Positions 4,267 to 26,436 are shown, numbered from the stretch's first letter. The stretch is 38,406 nt of DNA from Alphaproteobacteria bacterium (GCA_017392345.1 JAFOVN010000047.1:1-38406); one strand, 5' to 3'. Notes: generated by a model not told the origin, from the sequence alone. A program made the numbers and translations.

Positions 4267-5352
4267 ATGAAAACCAAAATCACTATTTCATTTCTTGCCA
4301 TTGCCATCGCAACCATACAAAGCGCAAACGCATGCACCGGCATCACACTAACCGCGGCGGACAAATCTTTCGTCCTTGCGCGCACCGTCGATTGGTCGGG
4401 TTCGGAAATGGATAACCTGTACGTCATCAGTCCGCGGGACCACACCGAACAATCATTACTGCCCGACGGGTCAAAGGATGGTATGAAATTCACATCTAAA
4501 TACGGCTTTGTTGGTCTTGGCATGCAAAGGCCCGAATTCATCGTTGACGGCACGAACGAGGCTGGACTTTCCGCCGCCCTATTCTATTTTCCGGACTATG
4601 GCAAATATGTGCCGTATTCATCGGCCGATAACGCAAACACCCTTGCGGATTTCCAGGTTGTATCATGGATACTGTCGAACTTTTCAAGCATTGACGAAGT
4701 AAAATCCGCGATGGACACCGTAAACGTCGTAAACATTGACCCCACTGCATCAACTGTTCATTGGCGCATCGCCGAAGCATCTGGGCGCGTGGTCGTCATG
4801 GAAATTATCGATGGCATACCAACATTTTATGAAAACCCATTGGGCACCATCGCAAATTCGCCAGAATTCACGTGGCATTTAACGAATCTTGATAATTATA
4901 TCAATTTGCAATCCGGCACAATCGCGCCGACGGTATTTGGGCCGATTAAATTGCAATCGTTAAGTCATGGAACGGGCTTGCTCGGCCTGCCCGGGGACTT
5001 TTCATCGCCGTCACGCTTTGTCCGCGCATCGTTTTTCAAGAATTATTCAATAACGCAACCCGATGCCGCCGCCACGATTAAACAGGCGTTTCATATACTT
5101 AACAACTTTGATGTTCCGTTCGGCACGACCCAGGCGGCAAAGTCGGGAACTTTCGACATGCCGTCCGCAACCCAGTGGACAATCGCAACCGATATTACGA
5201 ATCGGAAAATTTACTATCACACAATGTATAACCGCACAATTCGTCGTATCGACATGAACACAATTGATTTTGAAACCGTACCGTTCCAATCGCACCCATT
5301 GGATACAGCGCGCGCCGAAACGATCTTTGACGTGGCGATTGACACGGAATAA
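4267..5352 (+). CDS. Choloylglycine hydrolase / penicillin V acylase family Ntn hydrolase with signal peptide
   Basis: Signal peptide ending ANA then nucleophile C-TGITL; ARTVDW, DGTNEAGL, NSP, GLPGDFSSPSRFVRA motifs. Confidence 0.92.
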   Translation: MKTKITISFLAIAIATIQSANACTGITLTAADKSFVLARTVDWSGSEMDNLYVISPRDHTEQSLLPDGSKDGMKFTSKYGFVGLGMQRPEFIVDGTNEAGLSAALFYFPDYGKYVPYSSADNANTLADFQVVSWILSNFSSIDEVKSAMDTVNVVNIDPTASTVHWRIAEASGRVVVMEIIDGIPTFYENPLGTIANSPEFTWHLTNLDNYINLQSGTIAPTVFGPIKLQSLSHGTGLLGLPGDFSSPSRFVRASFFKNYSITQPDAAATIKQAFHILNNFDVPFGTTQAAKSGTFDMPSATQWTIATDITNRKIYYHTMYNRTIRRIDMNTIDFETVPFQSHPLDTARAETIFDVAIDTE

Positions 5353-7210: not shown

Positions 7211-10200
7211 TTAGATACCAATCCGGTGCGCCATTTTCATCATAAATATAGATTCATTTCCAAATTCATGCGTATTATTTGGATTCACGCGATATATAAA
7301 CCCAATTGCCCCATCGGTAAATTCACCGATTTTTTGCCGATACGACGCGTTAAACCGAACCTCACGCGCGTCTGGTGCAATATCAATATCACGCACGCCG
7401 GCATTTGAAATTACCAAATCATATCGGTCTTCGTCATCAGTCACAATATCATAGTCGGCATAATCATAATACATCTTTCCATGGCGCACCGCCAACGGCA
7501 ACGACACCCCAAGCGAAAAATTATGTGCATCAACACCAAGCGAAAACGCATTCGAATCCAATTCAGAAAGCGATATTATCGCGCCACCATCCACACCCGG
7601 GGTCGTGCGCGCAAATGTTGCCCGCGCATGCGCACGCACATCATCAAACAAATTCCAATATACACCCGCATCAACATATCGCGTTTCCGCCGCCCCCAAT
7701 CCCAAAAGCCCAGTTCCCGACGCACCAAGCAATGTATCACTTTCATGCGCAACACCAAAACTTGTTGTCAAACCAAAATTCTTTGCGCGCCACCCAACAC
7801 TTGATTGCACCGCCGAAAAATTCCCCAACTTCATGGGTTCCAGGTTTGCCGAAATCGTCGGATCATTGGCAAGTAAACCTTCATCCGTAATCGCACCTGA
7901 AACACTGCGCGCACCAAAGAACAAATTACCATATTTATATTCCGCACCCACCGACGTCGCATTCGATGCAAGACCAAAAATCGGATTCGACGCACCACCG
8001 AATCGTGATTCCCCGTCCGTCAAATAACGCTGATAATCCGCAGAAATTTTCCAAGAATCATTTGCATATTCAAACCGCATATTATCAACACCGCCCATAC
8101 CGTCGTCATAGTTGCGTTCACCCCTTGTAAAACCAAACGACATATTTCCAACACGCGTCATATTATCGTCATTCGCACGCACACGCAAATCCGACAGAAC
8201 ATCCCCCATATAAAGCGCGTGCCGCCCATCCGACCCAAGTGAAAAATTATTTTTCCAAATACGCGGCAACCGCATTGTTCCATCCACACTTTCCAAGACA
8301 TCATATGCCGCGGTACTTATCGCGACGCGTCCCATATTCAACGCCCCCGAACCACGAAAACCCGTCGTTGTCGCCGCACGCCAATACGCATTACCCGACG
8401 TTGACACAATATCGCCACCGGAATAGAAATACAAATTTGTCCCTGGCGTTGTTGCACGTTCAAGATTTATTACACCATAACCAAAAACTTCCTTGAACAC
8501 ATCCAAATAGTTTTCATTATTGTTATCTATGCGCCACTGATACGACGCGGGCATTTCATACATCGATTGCAAGTGCGCGGCAAGCGCAGATTCCGTAAGT
8601 GTTTGTCCGGAACTAAGCCGCCCCAAATATGGTCCATCCGCCGTTAGTGCCATCAACATAAAAATTTGCTGTGGCGTCATATAGTAAAACGCAGACGTCA
8701 ACACCCCGGCCGCGCCCGCCGCCGCCGCGGTTGCCATTTCATCGGTCACACCAACCGCCGCAAAGCACCACGGATCAATTCCCGCACCACCTGTTCCGGC
8801 GGTACCACACGTGCGCGCCTTGTAATAAGTCATACCGTCTGTCGGGTCATTAACCGCCCATTGTGCCAACTGAAATTGATTCGTGTTTGTATCGGTGTTC
8901 GGCGCAATTCCGCTTTCGCCCGCCGTGGGCGCACCAACCGCAACAACCGACATAAACAAATGTTCAAGGTTCGAATAAACCAACGGCGCCGCATTTTCAA
9001 ATGTCGCGGTCATTGGCGCATCCGCCCAACCCGCATTTGTAATTGATGCACCCGTTGAAAAAACCGTCAATGGGGAATACGATACCCCAAGCGAATTAAA
9101 AAAAGATGTCGCGTTCGTTTGTGGTAAATTATTGCTATCCGTTGCACCATATGCACCCGCAATTAGATTTCCAAATGTTGTTTCGTAATTACCCGCACCG
9201 CCCGCAAGCACCGTTTGAATTGTTGCCGCACTTGTTAAATGCAACGGTTCAATCACATCGGTATTTGCGATAATGCTAACCCGTGAACGCCCGCCGGAAA
9301 CGTCCCCCGAACGCGCCGCCGCATTCACCATCGCGGAATAATTATAGTAATCCGTTTGCTGCAATTGTTTGTATTGAAGAATAGTCCCCGCGCTCATCAA
9401 ATATGCACCATCGGCACGCCCATCACCATCTGAATCAATATATAAATACGGATTACCAACACTCATATAACCGCGATAAGTATGCGTTTCATTTGACAGT
9501 GTCACCGCATAACCATTAACCGTCACATTCAATTCTTCACTAAACAACGTCACAGTATCACCTGTGGCAAGTTCCGTTCCGGCCATTGAACACGTTCCGA
9601 CTTCAAGTGGACTTGTCAATTCAACCATATGTGTTCCACCGCCGGTGCGATAAATTGTCATCTGGCCATTTGGCATAAAACCGATATAGTCCGCATTTGA
9701 ATATCCCGCGGTATTTCCACCAACAATCTTGGCCGAGACATTATCAACGGCCGTGGCCGCATTGTTATAAACCGCCGTCCCCGAATTAGATAAATCGAAA
9801 AAACTTAAAAAATTGGAATCTTCCACCGTCGTATCATCAGCCACAGACGACGCATCCGCCCCAGTTATAATTTTGTTATTGTAATACTTGCTGGAAATCA
9901 TTGTGTTGCTTGCCGGATTTAACGATGACGGCCCGTTTGTTGTTGTCCATATAACTAACTTGTCCGCCAATGATGTATTCGCCGCCGCATTCACACCGTT
10001 CGCCGTCACCAAGGCGACATTTACTGGCCGCCCACCTTCGACCGGGTCATTGCCCAAATTATAACCACTTAAACTGAGCGGTGCATACGTACTTGAATCA
10101 CGCAGTGTCCGCATTCCCAAATACCCGCGTGCAAGGGGCGAATACCCCCGCATCAATAACAAATAATTTTCTTGTTGATTCATAAATTGAAAGTTTTTAT

Positions 10201-10831
10201 ATAAAATACTTGTCGTATCCGCCGGGGCGTAATACGACAAATTTTCCGCATAGTTTTTACTTTCCGCCGCCGCATTTGGCAACAACGGCCCATACGGCAA
10301 ACCATTTGCAAACAAAGGCGCGACCGTTTCGGGGTTATCACCACCGCCACCGGAACCACCACCGCCACCGCCGGCACCACTGCCCGTGTATCCGTTATCG
10401 TTTTCCGCATCAAAAACATCGGTCAATAAAAAAAGTCCACCTACAACAACGGCGGCACCCGCCGCCGCCAATATCAGTCCCTGGGCGGTGGACAGCCCAC
10501 CGAACAACCCACCCGTTCGCTCTGGCGCGCGGCGGGACCTGTATTTTCTAATTTGTTGGTCACACTTTGATGCATCCGCACCATACATCTGTAAAATCTG
10601 GGCCGCACGCAGGTCATTATTCATGAGTGCCGTACAAACAAGTGACAACCCCGTCGAATCAACAAAGTTTATATTCGCACCCGCCGCAACCAACGATTGC
10701 ACCTGGCGAATATCGGCATTTCGCGCCGCGGCCAATAACTGTGACGCCACGGTAAATTCGGTGACAGGCGCCGCATGCACCGCAAACGGACACAAAAACA
10801 AAGCAAATACAACCAATCGTATGAATTTCAT
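7211..10831 (-). CDS. Large exported protein: ankyrin repeats + hydrophobic helix + degenerate S8 subtilase-like domain + probable C-terminal beta-barrel
   Basis: Signal peptide MKFIRLVVFALFLCPFAVHA (ATG 10831); ankyrin LLAAARNADIRQVQSLVAAGANINFVDSTG; S8-like ARGYLG, FMSVVAV, CG...WCFAAVG, FGYGVINLERATTP; amphipathic beta-rich C-terminus. Confidence 0.75.
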   Translation of the reverse strand: MKFIRLVVFALFLCPFAVHAAPVTEFTVASQLLAAARNADIRQVQSLVAAGANINFVDSTGLSLVCTALMNNDLRAAQILQMYGADASKCDQQIRKYRSRRAPERTGGLFGGLSTAQGLILAAAGAAVVVGGLFLLTDVFDAENDNGYTGSGAGGGGGGSGGGGDNPETVAPLFANGLPYGPLLPNAAAESKNYAENLSYYAPADTTSILYKNFQFMNQQENYLLLMRGYSPLARGYLGMRTLRDSSTYAPLSLSGYNLGNDPVEGGRPVNVALVTANGVNAAANTSLADKLVIWTTTNGPSSLNPASNTMISSKYYNNKIITGADASSVADDTTVEDSNFLSFFDLSNSGTAVYNNAATAVDNVSAKIVGGNTAGYSNADYIGFMPNGQMTIYRTGGGTHMVELTSPLEVGTCSMAGTELATGDTVTLFSEELNVTVNGYAVTLSNETHTYRGYMSVGNPYLYIDSDGDGRADGAYLMSAGTILQYKQLQQTDYYNYSAMVNAAARSGDVSGGRSRVSIIANTDVIEPLHLTSAATIQTVLAGGAGNYETTFGNLIAGAYGATDSNNLPQTNATSFFNSLGVSYSPLTVFSTGASITNAGWADAPMTATFENAAPLVYSNLEHLFMSVVAVGAPTAGESGIAPNTDTNTNQFQLAQWAVNDPTDGMTYYKARTCGTAGTGGAGIDPWCFAAVGVTDEMATAAAAGAAGVLTSAFYYMTPQQIFMLMALTADGPYLGRLSSGQTLTESALAAHLQSMYEMPASYQWRIDNNNENYLDVFKEVFGYGVINLERATTPGTNLYFYSGGDIVSTSGNAYWRAATTTGFRGSGALNMGRVAISTAAYDVLESVDGTMRLPRIWKNNFSLGSDGRHALYMGDVLSDLRVRANDDNMTRVGNMSFGFTRGERNYDDGMGGVDNMRFEYANDSWKISADYQRYLTDGESRFGGASNPIFGLASNATSVGAEYKYGNLFFGARSVSGAITDEGLLANDPTISANLEPMKLGNFSAVQSSVGWRAKNFGLTTSFGVAHESDTLLGASGTGLLGLGAAETRYVDAGVYWNLFDDVRAHARATFARTTPGVDGGAIISLSELDSNAFSLGVDAHNFSLGVSLPLAVRHGKMYYDYADYDIVTDDEDRYDLVISNAGVRDIDIAPDAREVRFNASYRQKIGEFTDGAIGFIYRVNPNNTHEFGNESIFMMKMAHRIGI

Positions 10832-10885
10832 AAATTCTCTCTGTATCACGCACCATTTTACCAAAAAATGAATATTATGTCTAGC

Positions 10886-11583: not shown

Positions 11584-12453
11584 ATGAAACGCCACAATAT
11601 ATTCTTTATCGCGACGATTTGCGCGGTTGCGCCGGTTTTGTGCGCGCACGCCGCGGTATCAAAGTGCCAAAAGACCAGCATGCAACGGTGTCTTGATTCC
11701 GCGTGTGCAATAAATATCGGCATGAATCCGTCCGCCCGGTGCCAGTATTGTGGCACATCCGCCGCCGGCAATCCACCATCGCAAAAGGGTTTATCAACAA
11801 TAACCGCGGGGCAATCAACAAAATATGTTTTAACCGACCGCGAACTGCGTGTTGCGCCGTCCGACCCGGGCCGACGGTATATCTGGGCCACAACCGAATG
11901 CATTAAACGGTTGCCCGATTGCACGGCGGACGATGTATCCGACATATACGACAAACTTATTGAACAATCGTGCAAGGCCGCGGGCATCAGCATGCAAACC
12001 GCAAGCGCGATGCAAACAATAAACAAAAAGCCGACAAAATCATCATGCAACGACGCACTTACCGTATGTATGAACAAAAAGTGCGGCACAACATTTGAAA
12101 ACTGTGCCGAAGACGCGATATTCACCCGTTCCATCGCCGAATGCGCGGCGGAATCGACGGGTTGCGACGATTACATTGCGGAATTTAGAACAAGCGTAAC
12201 AAACGACCGAAAAACCGCGGCGGCGCGGCGCGAAAGCGTGCTACAAAACCTGGTCAAAGATTATCAAAGTACGCGTGAATCCAAGGTTGCCGGTGCAAAA
12301 ACAAACTGTAAAAACAGAAAAACATTTGAAAACTGCGTCACCGCGACATGCAACAATAATATGCCAAACAAATGCGACAACAACAAAACCGAACGGTCAA
12401 TGGCGGAAAGGTTGTGTCAGTTCTATAAAACGGCATGCACGGTATTAAAATAA
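11584..12453 (+). CDS. Exported Cys-rich hypothetical protein A (289 aa)
   Basis: Signal peptide ending AHA; dense regularly spaced Cys; motif CNDALTVCMNKKCGTTFENC. Confidence 0.85.
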   Translation: MKRHNIFFIATICAVAPVLCAHAAVSKCQKTSMQRCLDSACAINIGMNPSARCQYCGTSAAGNPPSQKGLSTITAGQSTKYVLTDRELRVAPSDPGRRYIWATTECIKRLPDCTADDVSDIYDKLIEQSCKAAGISMQTASAMQTINKKPTKSSCNDALTVCMNKKCGTTFENCAEDAIFTRSIAECAAESTGCDDYIAEFRTSVTNDRKTAAARRESVLQNLVKDYQSTRESKVAGAKTNCKNRKTFENCVTATCNNNMPNKCDNNKTERSMAERLCQFYKTACTVLK

Positions 12454-12454
12454 A

Positions 12455-14482
12455 ATGAAAACGAATTTGAAAATTTTTTGCGGGCTTTCGATTTTCGCGA
12501 TTATTGCGGCGACAAACACATTACACGCGGCAACCACGTCCGTCGTCAACAACAAAACGTCACAGTTTAATGATGTACTGTCGGAAATGGGCGCAAATGC
12601 GACCGATTCGTCGAACGCCGCACTCGCCGAAACAATTCGGCGGCAACGCGCATTGCTTGATGCGGCGGGCGATACAGGTGCGACCACAACCGGCGGAACA
12701 AACATAACAACGGCGAACGCGTGCGACGCGGCATTGCGTAAATGTATGTCGGAAAAGTGCGGTGCGGATTTTACAAAGTGCGCATCGGATTCCACAACCG
12801 TTTGGGGCAACAAAATGGACGCGTGCCGTCGAAACACAAAATGCACCGGCCACGAATACACATTACTTGCGCCGGAAATCTTGGCGGACCGGGATGCGGC
12901 AATTGAACTTTCATATTATAATTCCGTTGTGAATTGTGGCAACCGCTATAACAATTGCATATTTGGAATTTGTGGCAAATCATTGGAAAATTGCCTTTCC
13001 AAATCCGCGGGCGACAGTGCGATTGCAAAATGCAAATCAATCGCCGACGAATGCCGTGAACAGGATAGTGGCCTTGCCGCACGCGTGATGGGCGTGTTTG
13101 GCGACCGGCGAAACATCGCCGCCACAGAGGCACAAAGGGACGAAAAACGCCTTTACGAATTGCGCGATTTAATGCGCACCCAATGCACACGATTCGGCGC
13201 AATGTTTGACGAAAGAACACTTGATTGCGTATATACCGTGAATTTCTTTGCGGGCGCGGACAACACACTTATGGCATCAAAGAAACTTTATTCCGGCGAC
13301 ACATTCCAATGCACACCGGATTGGTTTGGTGTTGATATCACAACATATATGGAAAATGCCCAAAGACTTACCCGGTCGCAAACATCCGCATCCGCGGCGG
13401 CAATGGGTGCGGGCCTTGGGACGGCGGCGTCACTTTGGACATCGGGCGCGGTGACACGTGCAATAGATACACAAAACGCAGAAAAACAGGCCAAAGAAAA
13501 ATGCACGGCCGTCGATGGCGAATGGGTCAGTGCCGGATTCAACCAAGGCAGCAAATGCGACATGCGCAAACCAAAGGCCAATTGCGAAGGCCAAGGTTAC
13601 ACATGGGACGACAAAACCGGCTGTTCCGGTGGGAACAATAACAGCACAAACAACAGCGGTAATAACCCCAACCCCACAGGTAACAAACCATATGATACAC
13701 TCACCAACATATTAAACAAAAACCAAGACCTTAGCAACACAATAGCCACCGTCGCAAATTGCATACAATATAATAATCAAACCGAATGCGAAAAAGCAGA
13801 TGGTTGTACCTGGGGCGCCCCAAATGAAGAAAGCCCAGACAGCAAAGGTTGTATCGCAAAAATAGATTCATCAACCGGGGGTGGGAGTAATTCGATAACA
13901 GATGATAAACAACTTAATAAAAACAATACCAAATCCGCTAAAGCTGATCTTGTAACTGTATCCACAAAGGTCACAACGATTGCTGGTAATAAAATATCCG
14001 CCACAGTAACATGTGGCGATATAGTTGGAAAACCGAACATATTGGGTAATATCGCCCTAAGAAACGTTCCAAAAAACACCACTTGCACGGTAAATGCAAA
14101 CAATTGTCAATCAACGACATTTAATATAGAAAATATTCCAAAAACCACAACACTTACCTGCGAAAAAATTGACGATTGTTTTGATTCCCATGGTAATTGG
14201 AAAAGCGATGCTTGCGATTGTGGAGACACAAGAAAATTGAATGGCACAAAATGCGAGAATAAAACAATAACCGAACTATGTGAAAAAGATTGTCAAAAAT
14301 ATGCGAAAGATTTGAACCAAAATAATCGATTTACACAAATTTCAACCACACGAGATTCAAATTGTTATTCTCATTGTGATGATGTGTTTAAAGAAAAATG
14401 TAACAGCATATCAGGGGTTTGGCAAATGACAAAAACATGCAATACTGATGCTTGCAAATACGAATGTCATTCCCCAAGATAG
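12455..14482 (+). CDS. Exported Cys-rich hypothetical protein B (675 aa) with glycine zipper
   Basis: Signal peptide; CDAALRKCMSEKCGADFTKC; AAAMGAGLGTAASLWTSGA; starts 1 bp after the previous stop. Confidence 0.85.
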   Translation: MKTNLKIFCGLSIFAIIAATNTLHAATTSVVNNKTSQFNDVLSEMGANATDSSNAALAETIRRQRALLDAAGDTGATTTGGTNITTANACDAALRKCMSEKCGADFTKCASDSTTVWGNKMDACRRNTKCTGHEYTLLAPEILADRDAAIELSYYNSVVNCGNRYNNCIFGICGKSLENCLSKSAGDSAIAKCKSIADECREQDSGLAARVMGVFGDRRNIAATEAQRDEKRLYELRDLMRTQCTRFGAMFDERTLDCVYTVNFFAGADNTLMASKKLYSGDTFQCTPDWFGVDITTYMENAQRLTRSQTSASAAAMGAGLGTAASLWTSGAVTRAIDTQNAEKQAKEKCTAVDGEWVSAGFNQGSKCDMRKPKANCEGQGYTWDDKTGCSGGNNNSTNNSGNNPNPTGNKPYDTLTNILNKNQDLSNTIATVANCIQYNNQTECEKADGCTWGAPNEESPDSKGCIAKIDSSTGGGSNSITDDKQLNKNNTKSAKADLVTVSTKVTTIAGNKISATVTCGDIVGKPNILGNIALRNVPKNTTCTVNANNCQSTTFNIENIPKTTTLTCEKIDDCFDSHGNWKSDACDCGDTRKLNGTKCENKTITELCEKDCQKYAKDLNQNNRFTQISTTRDSNCYSHCDDVFKEKCNSISGVWQMTKTCNTDACKYECHSPR

Positions 14483-14554
14483 GCAACGCTTCTTATTATT
14501 TCCACTTACACTAACACTTTTCACTAACTCTTCCCTGCCCTGCACAACCGGTCT

Positions 14555-14685
14555 CCCCTTCTTCCCAAGAAGGGGTGGATTGTGAGCAACGCGAACAAGA
14601 CGGGGTAATTCTTGGCGCACCGCGCCAACATGAACCCATACCCCCCGGCGGTTCCGCCGGACCCCTTTCCACAGGAAAGGGGACT
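14555..14685. repeat. Inverted pair of REP-like palindromes (CCCCTT...AAGGGG type)
   Basis: ccccttcttcccaagaaggggtgg...gacggggtaatt and acccataccccccggcggttccgccggacccctttccacaggaaagggga; homologues at 18361, 23708, 23775, 24858, 25243. Confidence 0.85.
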
Positions 14686-15724
14686 ACCCAACAACCACTC
14701 CAACTAACTCTTCCCTGCTCTTCACAACCACTATCCCGTCCGATGCCCATTCGGCGGAATTTTTATCCAAATCCATAATACTATCGGTCCCCAGGTACAA
14801 AATCGGTTTCAAACCACGTTCTTCCCGCGCCCGCCGCAATGCCACAATCGGCGAAGGCCGCTGTTTCCCCGCCGCAAACCAATCAATTTCGTCCGGCACC
14901 CAGAAATCTTCGTCATCGTGCACCGCAATCGCATAACCGTTCGCAACAATTAAATCATCATGCGCCTTGGCATCAATCCCCGCCGCACGCAGCCACGCAC
15001 ATACCTTTTCAACCGGGCTTTCGCCCGCGGGCGCGGCCCCGTCCGACGGCGCACCGTCATTATCATCATCAAAATTTATATCGGCAAAGACTGGCACATC
15101 CGCCGTATCCGCCGACGCATCCATATCAAAGTCCGTTGGTATCGGCATCGCACCATACGCCGCCACATCTTCGGATTTTGCCGCGCCCACCGGTTCGGCG
15201 ATTGGTTCACGCGCCGGCTCAACCGAACCCGCCGCCCCCACCGGCGCAACAGGCATCGCCGTATCTGGCCCTGGTACATTTTGGCGATTAAACACCGACA
15301 TTTGCCGCGCGCCATAGTTTTTCTGTGCCCGCATAAATGTTTCGCGCATCTCCATCGGCACACCCGCACGAACCGGCGGCAAAGTTTCCCGCGCCGTCAC
15401 AACCGGCACAACCGGTTCGGGCTTTGGGGCCGGCGCCGTTTCGGTTAAACACTTTGGCAACGGCAACTTAACCGGCATTTCTTTATTTCGCACCGTCAAC
15501 ACCGTTGTCGCAACATAAAGTGGCACCGCCGCCAAAACCAAGATTCCAAACACCGCACCCGCAAACCCATGCAATTGCAAATGTAAAAGTTTCGTCAAAT
15601 GCGCCACCGAAAACATATTAAAATTAAACAGCCCGCGCAAAATCGCCCACATCACGAACACATAAATCCCCGTCCACGCAACCGCGCGCCAAAAATTCGC
15701 AAAAGATTCCTTTTTATCACTCAT
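14684..15724 (-). CDS. Hypothetical membrane protein: 2 TM helices, Pro/Ala/Asp-rich linker, C-terminal globular domain
   Basis: Two N-terminal hydrophobic helices; C-terminal FW...WFAAGKQRPSPI segment. Confidence 0.8.
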   Translation of the reverse strand: MSDKKESFANFWRAVAWTGIYVFVMWAILRGLFNFNMFSVAHLTKLLHLQLHGFAGAVFGILVLAAVPLYVATTVLTVRNKEMPVKLPLPKCLTETAPAPKPEPVVPVVTARETLPPVRAGVPMEMRETFMRAQKNYGARQMSVFNRQNVPGPDTAMPVAPVGAAGSVEPAREPIAEPVGAAKSEDVAAYGAMPIPTDFDMDASADTADVPVFADINFDDDNDGAPSDGAAPAGESPVEKVCAWLRAAGIDAKAHDDLIVANGYAIAVHDDEDFWVPDEIDWFAAGKQRPSPIVALRRAREERGLKPILYLGTDSIMDLDKNSAEWASDGIVVVKSREELVGVVVG

Positions 15725-15735
15725 TTACACTAACT

Positions 15736-15828
15736 ATTATAGACATATTTTTCTTTCTGTCAATAAAGTATTTATTTTTATATTTTTTTCAAAAAACACT
15801 TTTTTATTACCTTTTTCTATGGTATAAT
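15736..15828. promoter_or_regulatory. Divergent promoter pair
   Basis: Minus: TTGACA-16-TATAAT (15763-15736); plus: extended -10 TGGTATAAT (15820-15828), AAGGAGG RBS before 15855. Confidence 0.65.
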
Positions 15829-15854
15829 GTCACAGATAGAAAGGAGGGTTTTTC

Positions 15855-18311
15855 ATGCGAAATATGCTGAAAACTGTATGTAAAAGTGTAACATGCTTAT
15901 CAATTATCGCAATCGCGACCGCGGCTTTTGCGGTGACGGACGTATCACGCGGAACGGCAACCGCGAATCGTGGACGTGGCACGGCCAATGCGCGTATGCC
16001 GTCTATTCCTATTTTGCCGGTAAGTGCCGTTGGAAATATGACCGTTAGCAGTAATGACATCGACCCAAAGCCAACGCCACAACCGAAACCAACGCCAACA
16101 CCGACGCCGACACCGACACCGGACCCAGATCCAACCCCGGATCCCGACACACCGGTTCCACCGGCACCAAATCCGCCGACCCCGGAATGCCCCGATGGCG
16201 GTGTGGAAAATTCATCCTATTCTGTCGAAAACTGTATGAACGATGTTTTGGGCTGTGTCAACGGCGGCGCATTGCCAAACGGCATAAATTCGCTGTTTAA
16301 CGAAGACCTGCGCAATTCCATCGTAAATGGCATGGGGCTTTGTTTGACCCAAGTGGAAAAGTGTGTTTCCACCGTTCGTCGCAATTGCCAATATGTTTAC
16401 GCATCGACATCGGATGTATGGCTTGACTTTAACGCACGCAAGGTTCAACCGGAATACTATGCGTTCGTTTTGCGTCAAACGGGCCTTACCCCGACCCAGG
16501 CAGAAAACACATGTTTGTTGCTTGACCGCAACACATACGGTGCGGCGTTTAACGCGGTTTCCGTCAGTGATAACGTGACATCTGAATACGACCAACGCGT
16601 CGGCGCATACAACAGTGCAAAAAATGATTCACTTAGCAAACTAAACCCACTTGGTGCGCGTGTAAATGATACCGGCATTGATGGCAAGCGCGGATACTAT
16701 GCGCGTTGGGACGCGGAAAACGCACAATGCTTGTTGCGCGTGGCGGCGTATAACAAAGACACACCAATTACCAACAGTTGGCTCTTTGGTGCGGTTGGCG
16801 ATGATGCAATGGCCGAAGTGTGGCGTGCGACCGGATCTTCGTTCACATGCAACAAAGATTTGTTTGGATTCTCACTTATGCCAACAACAAAAACGGTTGC
16901 GGCGACCGCAATTCCCGGTGGAACATTACTGGGTGCGGGAATCGGTGCATTGGCGGGCCACGGCGACCGCAACTTTGATTGCACAATTGAATCTATGCGC
17001 AACACGTTGCTAAAAGAATTGCAAGACAACCAAAAAATTGGCGCAATAAATCAATATATTTCATCGGATTTGTCCAGCACATCAAAATCGATGACACTGG
17101 GTCAATGCCGCGAAATTGTTGACCTTTACGATATGTGGGAAATGGGCAAAGAAGCAGTCAACACATGTCGCGAACCAGGAACTTCTTCAACCAAACAAGA
17201 CAAATGCACACTAGAAACCGCCGGACTTCATTTTGATTGCGAAGGCGACGAAGCGTATATAAAACAATGCTTATCTAATGCTATAGAACTATTTTGTACA
17301 ACCGCGCCTTGCGCATGTGATGCATTAAAGAACGAAACAAATATCGAGACATTTAAATCGTTTGGTAATGTTGAACCTGAAAAAATTAAACAAGCAATCA
17401 TTGATTGGGTCAACCAACACCCAGACGCATGTTCCAAGAACTGTTCCGGCAATACAACCACAACCGAAACACACGAATGCAGATTTGTTAACCTGAATCA
17501 ATCATGGCGCGACGGCACAGATGTGTATTGCAGCCGCAGCACCGAATGCCTTGGCAAAGACGAATTCAAACGGCAACTTAACGCACTTGACAAGATATTC
17601 AATTCAATTGAAATCATAACACAGGGCGAAAAAGGCAACCGTCTAAAAACAACATTGGTTGGCGCGGGCATTGGTGCGGCAACCGGTGGAACGGCAACGG
17701 CAATCACAGCGTTTGTTGAAAAGAACAACATCAATTGCCGCGTGGCGGACGGCCTGGCCAAGGTTGGATTCGGCAAGTCATATTCAATCGACCGTCTGCG
17801 CGACTTCTATGTCAAATGGGCGTTGAATTTGCCGTCAACAATTGCGCCGACCGCGGTTGTCACGAACTGTGATAACTGGTCATTGACATGCGCGTTGTTC
17901 ACGGATGCCAATGAATGCAGGAACGCAAAGTTCAACTATCGTCCGGGCAATTTGTCCAGCACGACATTGGTGACGAATCCATGCACCCCATCGGGCAGTG
18001 CCTGTATCGCGAACATCGGCGTGGCACAATCGTATGGCGCATGCCTTGTGAACCCGACACCAAATCCAGGGGATGAACCGGATCCAAATGCGGGATTGTC
18101 GCGGGTATCGGACTGTAACGAATGGATTGACGCATGTAAAGTATTCACCAACGAATCCAGTTGTAATTCGGCCAAGGTAATATATGTTCCGCGTTCCATG
18201 CGTGTTTCGAATGCATGCAAATATCAATCGCGGATCAAAGAATGCCGCCCAAGTGCGCAAAAGGCAAAACAGTACTTGGACGTAAACAATTGTCCGATAC
18301 GACTTGAATAA
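15855..18311 (+). CDS. Exported Cys-rich hypothetical protein C (818 aa) with Pro-Thr linker and two glycine zippers
   Basis: Signal peptide ending AFA; PTPTPTPTPDPDP linker; GGTLLGAGIGALAG and GAGIGAATGGTATAITAF. Confidence 0.85.
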   Translation: MRNMLKTVCKSVTCLSIIAIATAAFAVTDVSRGTATANRGRGTANARMPSIPILPVSAVGNMTVSSNDIDPKPTPQPKPTPTPTPTPTPDPDPTPDPDTPVPPAPNPPTPECPDGGVENSSYSVENCMNDVLGCVNGGALPNGINSLFNEDLRNSIVNGMGLCLTQVEKCVSTVRRNCQYVYASTSDVWLDFNARKVQPEYYAFVLRQTGLTPTQAENTCLLLDRNTYGAAFNAVSVSDNVTSEYDQRVGAYNSAKNDSLSKLNPLGARVNDTGIDGKRGYYARWDAENAQCLLRVAAYNKDTPITNSWLFGAVGDDAMAEVWRATGSSFTCNKDLFGFSLMPTTKTVAATAIPGGTLLGAGIGALAGHGDRNFDCTIESMRNTLLKELQDNQKIGAINQYISSDLSSTSKSMTLGQCREIVDLYDMWEMGKEAVNTCREPGTSSTKQDKCTLETAGLHFDCEGDEAYIKQCLSNAIELFCTTAPCACDALKNETNIETFKSFGNVEPEKIKQAIIDWVNQHPDACSKNCSGNTTTTETHECRFVNLNQSWRDGTDVYCSRSTECLGKDEFKRQLNALDKIFNSIEIITQGEKGNRLKTTLVGAGIGAATGGTATAITAFVEKNNINCRVADGLAKVGFGKSYSIDRLRDFYVKWALNLPSTIAPTAVVTNCDNWSLTCALFTDANECRNAKFNYRPGNLSSTTLVTNPCTPSGSACIANIGVAQSYGACLVNPTPNPGDEPDPNAGLSRVSDCNEWIDACKVFTNESSCNSAKVIYVPRSMRVSNACKYQSRIKECRPSAQKAKQYLDVNNCPIRLE

Positions 18312-18482: not shown

Positions 18483-21400
18483 TTGAAACGGTTATCTTTT
18501 GCATTGATAATTTTTGCATGCACATCCGCCGCATTCGGCGCAACGCGCCAAGATACAGTTGCACGTTCAGCAACGGCGCCACGTGTTTCACGTGCGCCAC
18601 AAAATACCGGCACAACAAACGCAACACAATCAACAACACGCGCCGTCACATCACGCAGTGCAACAACGCAACAAAACACGCCGCCGGTCGCGCGTGGGCG
18701 CGCCGCGGTACAAACCCCAACAACAAACGCACGCGCGGCGAAACAAAGCGTAATTAGCACCGGAACCAAGGTCGCGGCCGCCACGGAAAACACTGCGGTT
18801 GACCAAGTGTGCTGGGCCAAGTTCAGCGGTTGCATGGATTCATTTTGTATGTTGGACAACGCAAACGGCGGCCGTTGTATTTGCAGTGATAAAAACGCCG
18901 AATACGACGCAATACTCCAAGAAATTCAAAACTTGGACGACCAAAGTTATCAACTTGCGACCGTCGGTGTCGAACGCATTGAAATGGGCGACGCGGTCGA
19001 TGCGGTTATGTCAAAAACCGATTCGGTGACAAAGCGCGTGACGGCGGACGCGGCGAAATCTAAACGCCAATCATTGGATTTAAGTTCATGGAATTCGCTG
19101 GACCTGGACTTTGATGCCGACGCCGAAGACATTTTTGACTTTTCATCGGACGGCGTTTCAATTGCCAACAAAACCGGCGATGCACTTTATCGCGCGGCGG
19201 CAAAACTTTGCAGCGCACAAATTCCCGAATGCAAATCGCAATCGACATTGATGGATTTAATGTATAAACAGCGCGTGCGTTCCGATTGCACCGCGTATGA
19301 AAATAGCCTACGCGCCGCCCGCACACAAAGCGCACAAAAACTTTACGCCGCACAAAGCGCCATGCGCGAAGCCGCATTGGAACAATACCGCAACGCGAAC
19401 AAATACGACCTTGGGCAATGCACGGTGCAATTCAAACAGTGCATGCAAACAACGGGCGGTTGTGGCGATGATTTCACCGGTTGCGTTGATTTGGCGGCGC
19501 GCGCAAATTCCATGGTCGGCCTAACCGGCAACACAACCACCCGCAAAGAAAAAACAATCAAAGGCACATCATCAAAAATAAAAATTTCCGCCGAAACGTA
19601 TGATACGTTAGAGGCGAAAAAAGCCCTGTGTATGACCGTAACCCAAGAATGCGTCAATGTCCGTGACCAAGTATGGGACGCCTTTTTGCGAGAGGCCGCA
19701 CCACAAATAAAATCTGCAGAATTGATTGTGGAATCGAACCTGCGGACATCTTGTATTTCAAACATATCAAACTGTTTTCAAAAGGCATGCCACGACACAA
19801 TGGATCCCAATGACCCAGAGGGTTCATATGACATGTGCCTTACACGGCCGGACACATTGCGTTCGGTGTGCAAGGTTGAAATCGACCCGTGCGAAGCCGC
19901 CGAACCGGCAATCATGGACTATGTCCGCGCGCGGTTGAAATCCATGCGCGTTGATTCATGCACCAACGAATTTAAGGCATGCTTGCAATCCGAAGACCGC
20001 TGTGGCGAAGATTACACACAATGTATTGGATTGGACACCGACACAATCGTCGATATGTGCCCGGCGGAAAAATTAACGGGTTGCACATACAAATACGGAA
20101 GCGATACAAAAACCGTAAAACAAACACTTGCAGACATCGCCACCGGCATATTCCTGAACATAGACAACAACATGCTAACGGCATGTCAAAAGGCCGCCAA
20201 TGCCGCAATGATAAAGGTCTGTGGCAGCACGGAAAATTGCAACGAATTGATTGCGGACAATGGTTTGGGATCACGTAGTTTAGAGTATAAAATATGTGAA
20301 TACTACGGCAACGAAAATAACATCAGCATCAACTACAATCAATGTCGTCCAAATATAGATATGATTACCGATATAGAATTAGGACGAAATTCCAGTGACC
20401 TTGTTACCGGATCTGATGGCAATATAAATTATACACCAAACACAGAAAAACCATTTGCAGGAGTCATTGATGGTATTATATATTGGGATAGTGTCACAAT
20501 AACCAATGATGGTTTAATTAGTACCAGTGAATACTATGATAACTTGGAACAAAAAGACAAAGACGAAGAAAATGGCCACATTGCCGAAAACAATCCTCAG
20601 CACGGTGGCGATCGCCAAGGTAATCAAACACCTAATAGACCCAATGGTTCATCAGGTAGCGGATCATATGGTAATGGTTCAGGTGGCATGTCCAATGGTA
20701 TATTATCAGGCAATGGTAGAAGAACAGATATCACAGAAGATCAAATGCATCGCATCAATGACGAATTGGCGGCTTTACAAACAAACATTCAAAACACAAT
20801 CAATGCAATCGAATCCGATCCAAAGGTTCAGTTCTGTATGAGTGGTCGTGAATTTCAAGGTTATAAAGAAATGTTAGGTGCAAAGGGCAACAAAACACGT
20901 TTCCCACAACTGACCGCACAAATGCGAAGGATTATATCGGAATCGGCATTATCACAAACCAAAGCGAACTACTATGCAAAGTATGATGAATTAAACGCAA
21001 AAATGCTAAAAGATTATTCGAAGATTGCCGAACGCAAAGCTGAAATTGCCGGACAAAACAGTAAAGATCAACGTCGTGAAATTGCACGTCAATCCTGTTT
21101 GTACATGGCAGATATGTCAACACTTGCACGTTCAGCCGAACCACCACGAAGTGCTGGGGGGATTGTTATAGGGTCAGTAATGGTTGTTGGTGGGGCAGTA
21201 GGGGCATTCTTTACTGGTGGTGCAACAACGCCCATTGCAGTGGCTGGGATGGGGTTATTGAGCAATGAACTTAAAACACCATCATCCGCTAACGGTGACG
21301 ATAAAGAACCTGATCGCCAGCCTCTTGTTTCATCCAAAAAAATGAATCAATGGAATTATAGAGAAACGATTACTACAACATTTGATTGGGAAAACTTGGT

Positions 21401-21518
21401 TTGCCACAAATGTGTTCGTTCTACACCTTGTGAAAAGACAAAGAACCCGTTAGTTGGTGACAAATATTGCGATCTATGGGGTGAAGAAACAGAAACATGC
21501 ACCGACACCCAATTCTAA
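18483..21518 (+). CDS. Exported Cys-rich hypothetical protein D (1011 aa) with C-terminal hydrophobic Gly-rich segment
   Basis: TTG start, signal peptide; Arg/Ala/Thr-rich N-terminus; CTVQFKQCMQTTGGCGDDFTGC and CTNEFKACLQSEDRCGEDYTQC; GGIVIGSVMVVGGAVGAFFTGG. Confidence 0.85.
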   Translation: MKRLSFALIIFACTSAAFGATRQDTVARSATAPRVSRAPQNTGTTNATQSTTRAVTSRSATTQQNTPPVARGRAAVQTPTTNARAAKQSVISTGTKVAAATENTAVDQVCWAKFSGCMDSFCMLDNANGGRCICSDKNAEYDAILQEIQNLDDQSYQLATVGVERIEMGDAVDAVMSKTDSVTKRVTADAAKSKRQSLDLSSWNSLDLDFDADAEDIFDFSSDGVSIANKTGDALYRAAAKLCSAQIPECKSQSTLMDLMYKQRVRSDCTAYENSLRAARTQSAQKLYAAQSAMREAALEQYRNANKYDLGQCTVQFKQCMQTTGGCGDDFTGCVDLAARANSMVGLTGNTTTRKEKTIKGTSSKIKISAETYDTLEAKKALCMTVTQECVNVRDQVWDAFLREAAPQIKSAELIVESNLRTSCISNISNCFQKACHDTMDPNDPEGSYDMCLTRPDTLRSVCKVEIDPCEAAEPAIMDYVRARLKSMRVDSCTNEFKACLQSEDRCGEDYTQCIGLDTDTIVDMCPAEKLTGCTYKYGSDTKTVKQTLADIATGIFLNIDNNMLTACQKAANAAMIKVCGSTENCNELIADNGLGSRSLEYKICEYYGNENNISINYNQCRPNIDMITDIELGRNSSDLVTGSDGNINYTPNTEKPFAGVIDGIIYWDSVTITNDGLISTSEYYDNLEQKDKDEENGHIAENNPQHGGDRQGNQTPNRPNGSSGSGSYGNGSGGMSNGILSGNGRRTDITEDQMHRINDELAALQTNIQNTINAIESDPKVQFCMSGREFQGYKEMLGAKGNKTRFPQLTAQMRRIISESALSQTKANYYAKYDELNAKMLKDYSKIAERKAEIAGQNSKDQRREIARQSCLYMADMSTLARSAEPPRSAGGIVIGSVMVVGGAVGAFFTGGATTPIAVAGMGLLSNELKTPSSANGDDKEPDRQPLVSSKKMNQWNYRETITTTFDWENLVCHKCVRSTPCEKTKNPLVGDKYCDLWGEETETCTDTQF

Positions 21519-21669: not shown

Positions 21670-22698
21670 ATGATTGAAAAAAACTGGATGGCTTTGATAA
21701 AGCCGAAAAAACTGAATATCACCACCGATGAACATAATCCGAACATGGCCAAATTGGTCGCGGAACCGCTTGAAAAGGGCTTTGGTCTTACGCTTGGCAC
21801 GGCGTTGCGTCGTGTTCTGTTGTCTTCACTCCAAGGTTGCGCGCCACTGTATGTTAAAATCGAAGGTGTTCAACACGAATTTTCAAGTATCCAAGGCGTG
21901 CACGAAGATGTCGCGGATATTTTACTGAACCTTAAGGGTGTTTATTTCAAGGCAAATTCCGAAGGTCAGCACAAGGTTGCGTTGCATGTGACCGGGCCGG
22001 CGGTTGTCAAGGCGGGCATGATCGAATGCACCAGCGCAATAGAGGTTATGAACCCCGACGCGGAACTTTGCACATTGGACAAAGGCGCGCAATTTGATAT
22101 GGAAATCACACTTGGCACGGGCCGCGGCTATGTTCCGGCGAACGCACATGCCGATGGATTGCCACTGGGCGTGATTCCGGTTGATTCAATCTTTTCACCA
22201 ATTTTGAATGTCGCGACCGTGGTTTCGGAAACCCGTGTTGGGCAATCAACGGACTATGACAAATTGGAAATGACCGTCAAAACGAACGGCAGTGTCACAC
22301 CCGAAGACGCAATCGCATTTGCGGCGCGCATCTTGACCGACCAATTGACTTTGTTCATCAATTTCGAAGACCCAACGCAAATCGCGGCACCGACCGAAGA
22401 AGAAGTCGCCAAGGATGCGTTGCAATTCGATCCGAAATTGCTGAAACGCGTGGACGAACTGGAATTGTCTGTGCGTGCGAACAATTGTTTAAAGAACGAC
22501 AAAATCAACTGGCTTGGCGAATTGGTCCAAAAGACCGAGGCGGATATGTTAAAGACCCCGAACTTTGGACGCAAGTCATTGAACGAAATCAAAATCCAAT
22601 TGGAAGCGATGGGCCTTGGCCTGGGGATGGAAGTCCCGGGTTGGCCGCCGGAAAACATCGCAGAATTGGCAAAAAAGTATGAGGATCCGTATAAATAA
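21670..22698 (+). CDS. rpoA: DNA-directed RNA polymerase subunit alpha
   Basis: [44 protein letters not shown]. Confidence 0.99.
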
Positions 22699-22709
22699 AG
22701 AGTGATACG

Positions 22710-22865
22710 ATGAAAGAAAACACTAAGAACCCGAAACAAGGACAGGGTAAAAACGCTTATGACGGATTTCAATGTGTGGTTGTGTGCCCACTTTCGAAGT
22801 TTAATGAAGCGAATAGGCGGTTTAGCACGTTTACGCGTGTGGGCTCTATGTATATCGTTAGATAA
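22710..22865 (+). CDS. Putative small protein (51 aa) between rpoA and rplQ
   Basis: Manual translation MKENTKNPKQGQGKNAYDGFQCVVVCPLSKFNEANRRFSTFTRVGSMYIVR; below the ORF-track cutoff. Confidence 0.4.
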   Translation: MKENTKNPKQGQGKNAYDGFQCVVVCPLSKFNEANRRFSTFTRVGSMYIVR

Positions 22866-22951
22866 ACGCGTGTTGCTGAATCACTGATTTGGGGCACGAA
22901 AAATGGTGCAATCCCGGAAAACCGGGCGGAAACAGAATAAAGGAGTAACCG

Positions 22952-23515
22952 ATGAGACACCAAAAATCTGGTCGCACTTTTAATCGCGACACAAATGCAC
23001 GCAAGGCCTTGTTTATTGGGCTTGCGAAAAACCTGATTGAAAAAGAACAAATCAAAACAACTTTGCCAAAGGCCAAAGATCTGCGCAGTGTCGTGGAAAA
23101 ATTGGTTACCCGCGCCAAGGTTGATACCGTTGCGAACCGCCGCCTGACCGCGTCGGAATTGGGCAACGCGTGCGATGCAACCGTGAAAAAATTGTTCACG
23201 GTGCTTGGGCCACGCTATGCGAAACGTCCGGGCGGATACACCCGCGTGTTAAAGGCCGGTTTCCGCTATGGCGATGCCGCACCGATGGCGATTATCGAAT
23301 TCATTGACCGCGATGTGAATGCGAAAAAACCACAAAAACCAGAGGTCGCCGCGGCCAAGGCCGAAGAAGCGACCGCAACCGATGCGCCCAAGGCACCCAG
23401 GGCACCAAAGGCCGAAAAAACAACCAAGGCACCGGCCAAAGAACCGGCGGCGAAAAAAGCCAATACAACGGCGAATAAAACCGTTGCGGTAAAACGCCGC
23501 GCCACCGGGAAATAA
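22952..23515 (+). CDS. rplQ: 50S ribosomal protein L17 with Ala/Lys-rich C-terminal extension
   Basis: [34 protein letters not shown]. Confidence 0.98.
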
Positions 23516-23540: not shown

Positions 23541-23826
23541 CGTCATACCGCCGTATCGGGCCCCACGAAAAACGCGCGGCGTTTTTGTGGGTGATTTCAG
23601 GCGGTATCTTGTTGAACTTCGACAAATGCAAAGAGATACCGCCTTTCGGCGGTATGACGGAAAAAAACACGGGCGCGTTCGCGCCCGTTTATTCCAGAGC
23701 ATGAAGTTCCCCTTTCCTATGGAAAGGGGTCCGGCTGAACAGCCGGGAGGTATGGGTGATAAAAAACATTATTACCACTACCCCGGCGGGATTCCCCGCC
23801 ACCCCTTCGCCAGCGAAGGGGAATTA
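23541..23826. repeat. Cluster of REP-like palindromes
   Basis: cgtcataccgcc...ggcggtatc...gataccgcctttcggcggtatgacg element plus inverted CCCCTT...AAGGGG pair (23708-23757, 23775-23826). Confidence 0.85.
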
Positions 23827-24837
23827 CCGTCCCACATTAAATTCATCGCCATAGCCGGCTACGGATTGACCACCGATATAACAACCGATGTCTTCGAAAC
23901 CTTGTTTAACCTGGGCCTTTTTGACAAGGTTCGCCGTCACAATTCCGCCAACGGTCCCCAAAACAACACCCGCAATACTGTCCGATGCAAGACGCGCGGT
24001 GTTAAATTCGCCGTTTTCATCACGCCATACATTTTTTTCAAACCCACCAATCGTTGCCGTTAAACTGTTAAATTTGCTGTCCAGGTCGCTTTCCAAACCC
24101 GCAACATATTTTGCCGTCCATTCACATTTGCCATTTTTGATTTCTTTGTTTGGATTGTCACATTCTGTTCCGTTTAATAAATTATCATTATTCAGTAAAT
24201 TAGCTGAATATGTTATACATTGGTGTAAATCATGGTCATACCGTTTTTTGTCATCTATACATTTGCATTTGTATGGTCCATCGTTTATTAAATTAATTTC
24301 CACTTCACAACGACAAAAAGGACCTTCAGACCATGGTGCAGTACCACCAGACAGAAAACATTCTCTATCCAACGAATCAAATTTATCATAATCATATTTA
24401 CAAATAGTGTCCTTCTGTATCGCCCATCCTTCCCTTTCATTTCCGTAACAAATCGATCTTTCATCAAAACCCGTTGCACAATTATATCTAGCTCTATTAT
24501 GTGTATTTATTACTGTTTGCAAGTCGTCACCACATTTTGTATTCACATAGAAATCTTTCCATTCACCCCGAGCATTGCATATTTGCGCTGTAACTTTAAG
24601 TGGTGTCCATACAACATCATCAATATCACAACCTTTATTATCATCATGACCATTTTTATCATGGTGTGTACCACAGAAAACAAATGTTCCGGCATTTGAA
24701 CCTGTATTTTCTAATAAAACATACGAAGAAATAGAATTATAATCTATATCAGAGGCAAGTATTGGTAAACATTTTCCACAAAACGCAAAATTAATAAAAC
24801 CCAAATAAAAATATAACGCAAATAAAATTTTTTTCAT
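23824..24837 (-). CDS. Exported Cys-rich hypothetical protein E (337 aa) with C-terminal glycine-zipper domain
   Basis: ATG 24837 MKKILFALYFYLGFINFAFC; C-terminal RLASDSIAGVVLGTVGGIVTANLVKK...IGCYIGGQSVAGYGDEF. Confidence 0.85.
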   Translation of the reverse strand: MKKILFALYFYLGFINFAFCGKCLPILASDIDYNSISSYVLLENTGSNAGTFVFCGTHHDKNGHDDNKGCDIDDVVWTPLKVTAQICNARGEWKDFYVNTKCGDDLQTVINTHNRARYNCATGFDERSICYGNEREGWAIQKDTICKYDYDKFDSLDRECFLSGGTAPWSEGPFCRCEVEINLINDGPYKCKCIDDKKRYDHDLHQCITYSANLLNNDNLLNGTECDNPNKEIKNGKCEWTAKYVAGLESDLDSKFNSLTATIGGFEKNVWRDENGEFNTARLASDSIAGVVLGTVGGIVTANLVKKAQVKQGFEDIGCYIGGQSVAGYGDEFNVGR

Positions 24838-25505: not shown

Positions 25506-25883
25506 TTAAACTCTACGCACTTTCTTTGGACGACAACCGTTGTGCGGAATACGCGTTGTATCGGTAATACTTTGCACAACCAACCCGGCATTAGCCAAAC
25601 CACGAACCGCGGATTCACGACCCTGACCAATTCCGCGCATAAGGACATCGACGGTCTTCATACCCATTTCGGCAACCTTTTTGCCAACCGCGTCCGCAAC
25701 AACCGTCGCCGCATACGGGGTCGATTTCTTTGCGCCCTTGAAATTATTCGCGCCCGCCGTCGCCCAGGTCAAAACCGCACCCGATTGATCAGTGATTGTG
25801 ATACGCGTATTATTATTCGTGGCAACGACATGAGCAATGCCGTGCGAAACTTTTTTTACAACTTTCTTTTTATTTATTGCCAT
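25506..25883 (-). CDS. rpsK: 30S ribosomal protein S11
   Basis: NNTRITITD, KKSTPYAA, PHNGCRP. Confidence 0.98.
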   Translation of the reverse strand: MAINKKKVVKKVSHGIAHVVATNNNTRITITDQSGAVLTWATAGANNFKGAKKSTPYAATVVADAVGKKVAEMGMKTVDVLMRGIGQGRESAVRGLANAGLVVQSITDTTRIPHNGCRPKKVRRV

Positions 25884-25947
25884 TTTTATTTTTTCCTTTT
25901 ATTAGATGTCTTCAATTAACTATCGTGTTAATCTCTACCCAACGGGA

Positions 25948-26416: not shown

Positions 26417-26436
26417 ACCTTTGTTTCACGCAAGTT

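Follow-up and report, generated by a model that had tools for sequence, protein, structure and literature searches.

In a 38,406-nucleotide contig of an alphaproteobacterium (GCA_017392345.1, JAFOVN010000047.1:1-38406; this whole stretch is hereafter the window, and is contig C37 of a 677-kb genome that is 76% complete), we analyzed five cysteine-rich proteins, A to E, all with signal-peptide-like hydrophobic N-termini, together with the glycine-zipper segments that several of them carry. We tentatively propose, at somewhat less than an even chance, that a beta module preceding such a zipper and a C-terminal tail following one may be the two halves of a single glycine-zipper anchoring or docking unit, used by lineage-specific, Sec-exported, cysteine-rich envelope proteins. 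The proposed mechanism draws on homology, on gene fusion and fission, and on patterns of conservation. Similarity in the pre-zipper module connects B with C, C with F, and F with X, and similarity in the post-zipper tail unites E and its paralogs with F, where F and X are two further proteins encoded elsewhere in the same genome. A first-pass annotation of the window had suggested a shared module bracketing the zipper and split differently among B, C, D, and E, with both halves in C, the first in B, and the second in E. Searches with Pfam and NCBIfam assigned no family to A–E (at E<=0.1) or to F.

Orthologs of each protein were gathered from 24 genomes of the same genus, and the resulting profiles were compared with hhalign against a null of shuffled alignment columns (80 or 100 shuffles). 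Genome-wide hidden Markov model (HMM) searches covered the 4,734 open reading frames (ORFs) of the source genome. AlphaFold2 models were obtained for residues 105–740 of C, using 110 sequences, and for residues 85–350 of B, and the folds of the modules were compared by the order of their secondary-structure elements only. The proteins and segments that bear on the two halves are the following.

12455..14482, plus strand: protein B, 675 residues; signal peptide, conserved cysteine-rich helical domain, pre-zipper module, zipper, and hypervariable C-terminal region
13199..13339, plus strand: pre-zipper module of B, residues 249–295, running from FDERTLDC to TFQCTPDWFG and aligned by hhalign to the C module
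13397..13456, plus strand: glycine zipper of B, residues 315–334, an uncharged Gly/Ala-rich run
15855..18311, plus strand: protein C, 818 residues; a signal peptide and a Pro-rich linker lead into a conserved N-domain, followed by module 1, zipper 1, a variable helical middle, zipper 2, a beta tail, and a Cys-rich C-domain
16701..16877, plus strand: pre-zipper module of C, residues 283–341, related to the B and F modules
16893..16958, plus strand: zipper 1 of C, residues 347–368, median insertion energy +3.1 kcal/mol
16968..17624, plus strand: variable region between the zippers of C, residues 372–590, with confident AlphaFold2 helices
17649..17717, plus strand: zipper 2 of C, residues 599–621, median insertion energy +3.5 kcal/mol
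17718..17804, plus strand: post-zipper beta tail of C, residues 622–650, NINCRVADGLAKVGFGKSYSI
23824..24837, minus strand: protein E, 337 residues if translation starts at MKKILF; signal peptide, variable Cys-rich head, and conserved C-terminal module
23827..24102, minus strand: E-type C-terminal module, about 92 residues; conserved lead-in, zipper (23923–23979), and tail DIGCYIGGQSVAGYGDEFNVGR (23827–23922)

All seven strings quoted in the first-pass annotation occur in the window where it had placed them: FDERTLDC (13205) and SGDTFQCT (13292) in B; WDAENAQC (16707), TGSSFTCN (16830), and NINCRVADG (17727) in C; FDWENLVC (21381) in D; and DIGCYIGG in E, from 23892 downwards on the minus strand and outside the range it had delimited. 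The pre-zipper module that it had drawn between B and C was borne out, with hhalign values of 56–76% and no shuffle (0/100) reaching the observed score. With the zipper columns included, the two profiles aligned at 75.7% (E 2.4e-5); without them, the score was 26.8 over 46 columns (56%), where the null gave 10.9 +/- 1.9. BLASTP recovered the same pair at E 0.007, and in the genome-wide searches the best non-self match of the B and C module HMMs was in each case the other protein (E 0.11 and 0.017). On these profile comparisons, the B–C module is real. AlphaFold2 models the C module as strand, strand, helix, strand, strand, helix, with a predicted local distance difference test (pLDDT) of 72–92, and places strands in the B module at residues 250–252, 257–259, 262–266, and 272–276 (pLDDT 54–69), three of the four coinciding with aligned C strands. 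The B model as a whole (mean pLDDT 65.7) comprises a helical cysteine-rich domain in addition to the module strands.

Conservation in B stops at about its zipper. Matches to B were found in 23 of the 24 genus genomes and are confined to about residues 29–350; pairwise identity is 62–76% up to the zipper and 7% beyond residue 350. Proteins that are 96–98% identical to B over residues 85–350 range from 402 to 813 residues in length and have unrelated C-termini. Residues 351–675 (13505–14479) are swapped wholesale between strains whose N-terminal 266 residues are 96–98% identical.

Orthologs of C occur in all 24 genus genomes, and its conservation is interrupted between the two zippers: pairwise identity runs at 70% in the N-domain, 77% in the module, 77% in zipper 1, 24% in the middle region, 73% in zipper 2, 75% in the tail, and 58% in the C-domain. 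The C model has a mean pLDDT of 73, with three short strands in the tail (pLDDT 83–91) and both zippers as coil below 50. For the best 120 of 735 database relatives of C, every source name given is 'hypothetical protein', nearly all of them from alphaproteobacterial metagenome-assembled genomes, with one exception labelled Muribaculaceae. Separately, C carries in this genome an extra C-terminal extension of about 80 residues (740–818; 18072–18308) that repeats the pattern DCxxWxxxCxxFTxxxxCxxAK of residues about 668–694 (17856–17940), as VSDCNEWIDACKVFTNESSCNSAKVIY versus VTNCDNWSLTCALFTDANECRNAKFNY. Ten of the 11 other C orthologs aligned stop at about residue 735, and the remaining one has a shorter, unrelated extension.

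The post-zipper half is clearest in E. Outside the source genome, conservation of E is limited to about residues 265–352, its last ~90, and the corresponding module recurs in one to four copies per genus genome behind unrelated heads that start with signal peptides. Identity among E-type proteins is 8% in the heads, 70% in the zipper, and 67% in the tail. The tail is about 32 residues long, ends in VG(I/R), and has a single cysteine that is invariant in all 29 tails aligned. A profile built from these 29 E-type and F-type tails, termed A2, was used in a survey of 171 genomes of the family (151 of the genus and 20 from ten other genera) and 29 genomes from the other families of the order, and in a search of 1.84 billion representative proteins at E<=0.001. 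It matched all 171 family genomes (151/151 in the genus and 20/20 in the ten other genera), in 1–11 copies each, and one of the 29 outside the family. The protein search returned 1,115 clusters; in 147 of the best 150 matches, the tail motif lies within 15 residues of the C-terminus. Found as it is on more than 1,000 unrelated cysteine-rich proteins, the E tail is, by this survey, a widespread, C-terminal module.

The heads of two E-type proteins give weak matches to the OmpA-like domain (PF00691), close to full length but both below the Pfam cut-off of 27.2 bits: a paralog in the source genome (L042:1526-2563, contig C14; 15.9 bits, E 0.017, profile positions 1–91 of 98) and the protein at L038:1495-3171 (21.3 bits, E 3.4e-4). 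E itself has no PF00691 match. These weak matches favour a location in the envelope for E-type proteins and would fit outward-facing heads poorly.

Evidence that the two halves may belong together comes from proteins that the first-pass annotation had not seen. F, of 1,123 residues, is encoded on contig C18 of the source genome, was found through a weak match of the E-tail HMM at its C-terminus, and is present in all 24 genus genomes. Its second zipper and tail align to the E module at 96% (E 4.9e-9), and the tails alone at 95% (0/100 shuffles). Its pre-zipper region aligns to the C module at 58% (E 9.6e-5, 0/100 shuffles) and marginally to the B module (1/100 shuffles), while the F and C tails give a score reached by 5/100 shuffles. 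Identity in F is 64–67% before zipper 1, 9% in the middle, and 51% in the tail. X is an exported protein of ~285 residues, likewise present in 24/24 genus genomes, which corresponds to a stand-alone F-type first half: it aligns to F at 97% over module and zipper and at 98% (E 5e-13) without the zipper, and a direct search with X also matches nine F orthologs at E<=1e-5. To C, X is related weakly (score 17.9, 0/100 shuffles).

X and E-type genes are moreover found next to one another and, in one genome, joined. In G019 and G006, X precedes an E-type gene by 3–10 nucleotides (3 nucleotides in G019, where the pair is L031:172-1026 and L031:1030-1908), and in G018 and G020 it lies directly downstream of one, giving direct adjacency in four of the 24 genus genomes and a fusion in a fifth (G008), although these genomes are related and hence not independent, so that the counts overstate the support. 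The G008 fusion is a 924-residue ORF (L094:570-3341, contig C18) that encodes a variable head, then a zipper and tail of the E type, and then mature X with its own zipper; the joint contains neither a stop codon nor a signal peptide. Eight further genomes, the source genome included, have both genes on the same contig at a distance of no more than about 3 kb (in the source genome, X at C14:3-800, a copy truncated by the contig end, and an E paralog at C14:3525-4562). The idea of two halves split differently among proteins is thus supported through F, X, and the G008 fusion, as one unit bracketing zippers, and the partner type of E that these comparisons point to is X/F, not B. For two of the proteins on which the idea had been built, the assignment is less secure: the second half of C is marginal, and the motif of D finds no support in the shuffles.

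The C–E tail match, on which the first-pass annotation had rested its second half, is marginal. The best alignment by both BLASTP and hhalign falls in the register it had given, with NINC on DIGC, but the tails alone score 15.8 (10%, 20 columns), a value reached by 2/100 shuffles; with the zipper, hhalign gives 0.8–1.2%, 16/80 shuffles reach the score, and BLASTP gives E 1.8. In the genome searches, the HMM of the E module did not match C, nor did that of the second C module match E. We regard it as an even question whether this likeness and the D motif reflect chance between short Cys/Gly-containing strings, with only the B–C relation real. The shuffle counts for C–E, D–B (5/80), and the F and C tails speak for chance, as do the failed HMM searches; against it stand the shared register, the position of both the C and E tails directly after a zipper, and the modelling of the C tail, for C only, as three short strands.

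The relevant features of D, and those of protein A, are as follows.

11584..12453, plus strand: protein A, 289 residues; signal peptide, then cysteine-rich helical repeats of the A/B/D type
18483..21518, plus strand: protein D, 1,011 residues; one of a large family of paralogous Cys-rich helical-repeat proteins
21150..21230, plus strand: Gly/Ala-rich segment of D, residues 890–916, prone to insertions and deletions
21345..21515, plus strand: conserved C-terminal tail of D, with FDWENLVC (21381–21404) and ending in QF, conserved among D orthologs

The FDWENLVC motif had been listed with those of B and C; it follows the zipper of D, and D–B comparison gives hhalign 1% over 18 columns in the proposed register, with 5/80 shuffles reaching the score; by hhalign, the D tail has no supported relation to the B, C, or X modules. 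The D family itself is large, with 5–21 matches per genome in 24/24 genus genomes (~0.9 Mb each), 10 of them in the source genome, and with D-type matches in seven of the ten genera sampled in the order. The part shared within it is the N-terminal cysteine-rich helical repeats. Residues 153–262 of A match residues 88–179 of B by BLASTP (E 1e-4).

Sequence switches between conserved and variable at every zipper (B, C, E-type, and F), and the zippers of B, C, and E are themselves 65–77% conserved (65% ortholog identity in B). Their best 19-residue windows contain no charged residue in B and C and at most one Lys, Asn, His, or Asp in E, and consist mostly of small or hydrophobic residues. On a simplified translocon scale applied to the best 19-residue window, these segments score +3 to +5 kcal/mol (B +5.1, ortholog median +4.1), compared with -5.3 to 0 for the helices of SecY and +0.35 for P0009, used as references from the same genome. 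Because of such scores, the zippers would be expected to traverse Sec rather than stop in the inner membrane. By eye, signal peptides with Ala-x-Ala-type, signal peptidase I-like sites can be read in B (LHA/AT), C (AFA/VT), and F (ASA/AL), with D (IIFAC) ambiguous, and none of B, C, E, and F shows a canonical lipobox. The source genome has genes for BamA and for a protein resembling DsbA; its assembly is incomplete, and a search of it did not turn up DsbB.

These values bear directly on whether the zippers could be ordinary inner-membrane anchors, with E-type proteins as type I proteins made up of a periplasmic head, a single transmembrane helix, and a short tail in the cytoplasm, and with C and F crossing the membrane twice. 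The E zipper, with a Kyte–Doolittle value of 1.5–1.8 and Lys-Lys directly after it, matches the positive-inside rule, and the weak OmpA-like domains in two heads would suit a periplasmic head. We nonetheless consider this arrangement decidedly unlikely: the insertion scores lie well above those of genuine membrane helices encoded by the source genome; F and E, with two zippers and one, would have their homologous tails (96%) in different compartments; the Cys-bearing middle domain of C would be cytoplasmic; and the tail cysteine is invariant in 29/29 aligned tails.

Alternatively, the glycine-rich segments may be flexible hydrophobic linkers or buried parts of soluble exported proteins, with independent flanking pieces and no role in a membrane. 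In its favour, AlphaFold2 renders both C zippers and the B zipper region as coil at pLDDT<50, the D segment is lost in several orthologs, and a Pfam glycine-zipper model touches only 4 of the 29 tails. Conservation of 65–77% in the zippers of B, C, and E, the nearly uncharged windows of small or hydrophobic residues, the constant placement at the border between conserved and hypervariable sequence, and the repeated fusion or adjacency of the joined halves all argue against it, and we hold it to be unlikely.

The first-pass annotation had gone further, picturing a beta-rich scaffold that projects a hydrophobic hairpin, as pore-forming or fusogenic proteins do, and suggesting that B and E may complement each other; on this reading the hairpin would form pores in, or fuse, the membranes of another cell. 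The scaffold part stands insofar as AlphaFold2 strands appear in the C module and tail (72–92) and the B module (54–69) in the order predicted from the alignments; the hairpin does not, as the hydrophobic segments occur singly or, in C, are separated by about 230 residues, and their modelled pLDDT is below 50. Glycine zippers reportedly occur in channel-forming proteins, as Kim et al. are said to have described in 2005. Further in favour of such an activity, a published account (PMC12306168) describes these bacteria as devoid of standard transporters and as probably dependent on other cells. No pore-former or fusogen, however, was among the Foldseek or VIA-align fold matches, B and E have only one zipper each, and a tail carried by >1,000 unrelated heads fits an anchor better than a toxin, which together make this activity highly improbable. 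With either the C or the B model, Foldseek against the PDB gave no match at E<=0.001; VIA-align found no chain at Z>=5 for C, its best hit (Z 4.6) covering helical parts only and its alignments hardly reaching the beta modules; and PDB sequence profiles searched from the C, B, and E/F-tail alignments yielded low-complexity or chance rows only.

Under the anchoring unit that we favour, the zippers would pair up, inside one chain or across two, to give a helical hairpin embedded in a membrane, most probably the outer one. The beta module and tail would make up a conserved base in the periplasm, which the one invariant cysteine of the tail might lock through a disulfide, with the variable heads pointing outward. 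C would then be the self-contained version, B a base with its own variable head, and E a plug-in head dependent on a base of the X/F type or possibly of the B type. Cysteine counts are consistent with a disulfide between tail and base without demonstrating one: X has an odd number in 17 of 19 copies (five in 16 of 19), and C, read as having both halves, shows an even number in 12/12 orthologs. Cysteine parity in E-type proteins, tried as a test for a free tail cysteine, was set aside because it depends on the signal-peptide cut, with 76/81 odd under one cut and 35–36/81 odd with cuts at residue 26 or 30.

Several observations weigh against the proposed anchoring unit. In the AlphaFold2 models, the zippers are coil or partial helix of low confidence (pLDDT<50), their hydrophobicity is marginal, and the Gly/Ala segment is missing from several D orthologs, for which reasons the zippers may be linkers after all. 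B is tied to the network through C only, as X and the B module gave no signal by hhalign (63/100 shuffles), and the standing of the C tail as an E-type half is unproven. OmpA-like heads would be periplasmic, which clashes with heads facing outward.

A more specific and doubtful extension is a plug-and-socket form of surface display. The base (X, or built into F, C, and perhaps B) would provide one zipper helix and the beta module, and any of >1,000 interchangeable, cysteine-rich heads would dock onto it by the E-type tail, which would bring in the other helix together with a tail of three strands that a single disulfide locks.

Comparison with known systems places these proteins near several families and within none of them. 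Glycine-zipper lipoproteins of E. coli are outer-membrane residents, and one of them, YiaD, also has an OmpA-like domain (bioRxiv 10.64898/2025.12.22.696046). Like SlyB, YfgH, OsmB, and YiaD, the present proteins would be exported envelope proteins with Gly/Ala-rich helices of the GxxxG type that are too weakly hydrophobic for retention in the inner membrane, and the combination of zipper and OmpA-like domain in YiaD has a weak counterpart in the two E-type proteins described above. Unlike those lipoproteins, they are large, cysteine-rich, and hypervariable, with a flanking beta module or Cys-bearing tail; unlike Glycine zipper 2TM (PF05433), they have single zippers rather than a contiguous two-helix hairpin. 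Searches with the Gly-zipper clan (PF05433, PF13488, PF13441, and PF13436) gave no match to whole B, C, D, or E at E<=0.1 or to the module segments of B, C, D, and F at E<=10. Among the 29 E/F tails, four match PF13488 (best E 2.3e-4) and two each match PF13441, PF05433, and PF13436; the E tail of the window matches none of the four models.

The surface proteins of Giardia known as VSPs have hypervariable cysteine-rich heads, a conserved hydrophobic C-terminal segment, and a short conserved tail ending in CRGKA. The E-type proteins resemble them in mounting many variable Cys-rich heads on one conserved hydrophobic C-terminal segment and short tail, and differ in being bacterial, in lacking any sequence relation, in having one invariant Cys and a VG(I/R) end, and in having a separate partner half, X, with fusions. 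C-terminal sorting signals (PEP-CTERM, GlyGly-CTERM, LPXTG, and the C-terminal domain of the type IX secretion system, T9SS CTD) consist of a motif, a helix, and a terminal basic cluster, whereas the E-type helix precedes a conserved tail of ~32 residues with a VG(I/R) end; NCBIfam returned no such family for E at E<=0.1. The halves also behave like split or fused 'Rosetta stone' pairs, being fused in both orders (F; G008) and adjacent as genes in both orders, although such pairs are a line of inference, not a protein family. Like TraN (PF06986), finally, C would be a large cysteine-rich outer-membrane protein without a beta barrel. As a candidate for C, TraN was rejected: a cluster auto-named 'TraN family' was the third ESM Atlas neighbour of C at 0.79, below the level that shuffled proteins reach a third of the time, the search otherwise returned C's own clusters, and Pfam gave no PF06986 match in C at E<=0.1.

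The remainder of the window provides the genomic setting. The ORF of E extends to 24885, and its start is inferred at Met17 from the MKK-type signal peptides of relatives. The gene lies beyond rpoA and rplQ, which are on the plus strand at 21670–23515; on the minus strand, at 25506–27753, are two ribosomal-protein genes (S11-/S13-like by eye) and secY (by Pfam). With gene E between these two blocks, the usual rpsM-rpsK-rpoA-rplQ order is broken here. Between B and C, the minus strand (14684–15724) encodes a 346-residue protein with one clear hydrophobic helix, an acidic proline-rich middle, and no family match. A 1,217-residue exported protein (minus strand, 7211–10864) has weak N-terminal ankyrin-repeat matches (E 0.03), a glycine run, and a C-terminal region resembling an outer-membrane barrel by eye, with no family at threshold. 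At 4267–5352 lies a choloylglycine hydrolase family gene (PF02275, E 1e-64) of the bile-salt-hydrolase family, in what is a very small gut-bacterial genome.

Candidatus Enterousia and its relatives, of the order Rs-D84, are described in the published account cited above (PMC12306168) as widespread uncultured gut bacteria with genomes under about 1 Mb that lack respiration and standard transporters, which raises the question of how they touch and exploit other cells. Among the publications listed for Enterousia, judged by title and the start of the abstract, and for Rs-D84 together with cysteine-rich proteins, nothing on the present proteins was found. Unnamed, cysteine-rich exported proteins take up a sizeable share of these genomes, the D type alone contributing 5–21 matches per genome. 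An anchor of two halves, fused or split, offers a concrete and testable model for how a variable coat might be mounted. If the membrane concerned is the outer one, this would be helical, non-barrel, non-lipoprotein anchoring of surface proteins in a Gram-negative cell; and if the plug-and-socket arrangement holds, it would be a previously undescribed system of surface display, whose alpha-helical outer-membrane anchor would allow a bacterium with an obligately dependent way of life to exchange the surface by which it makes contact.

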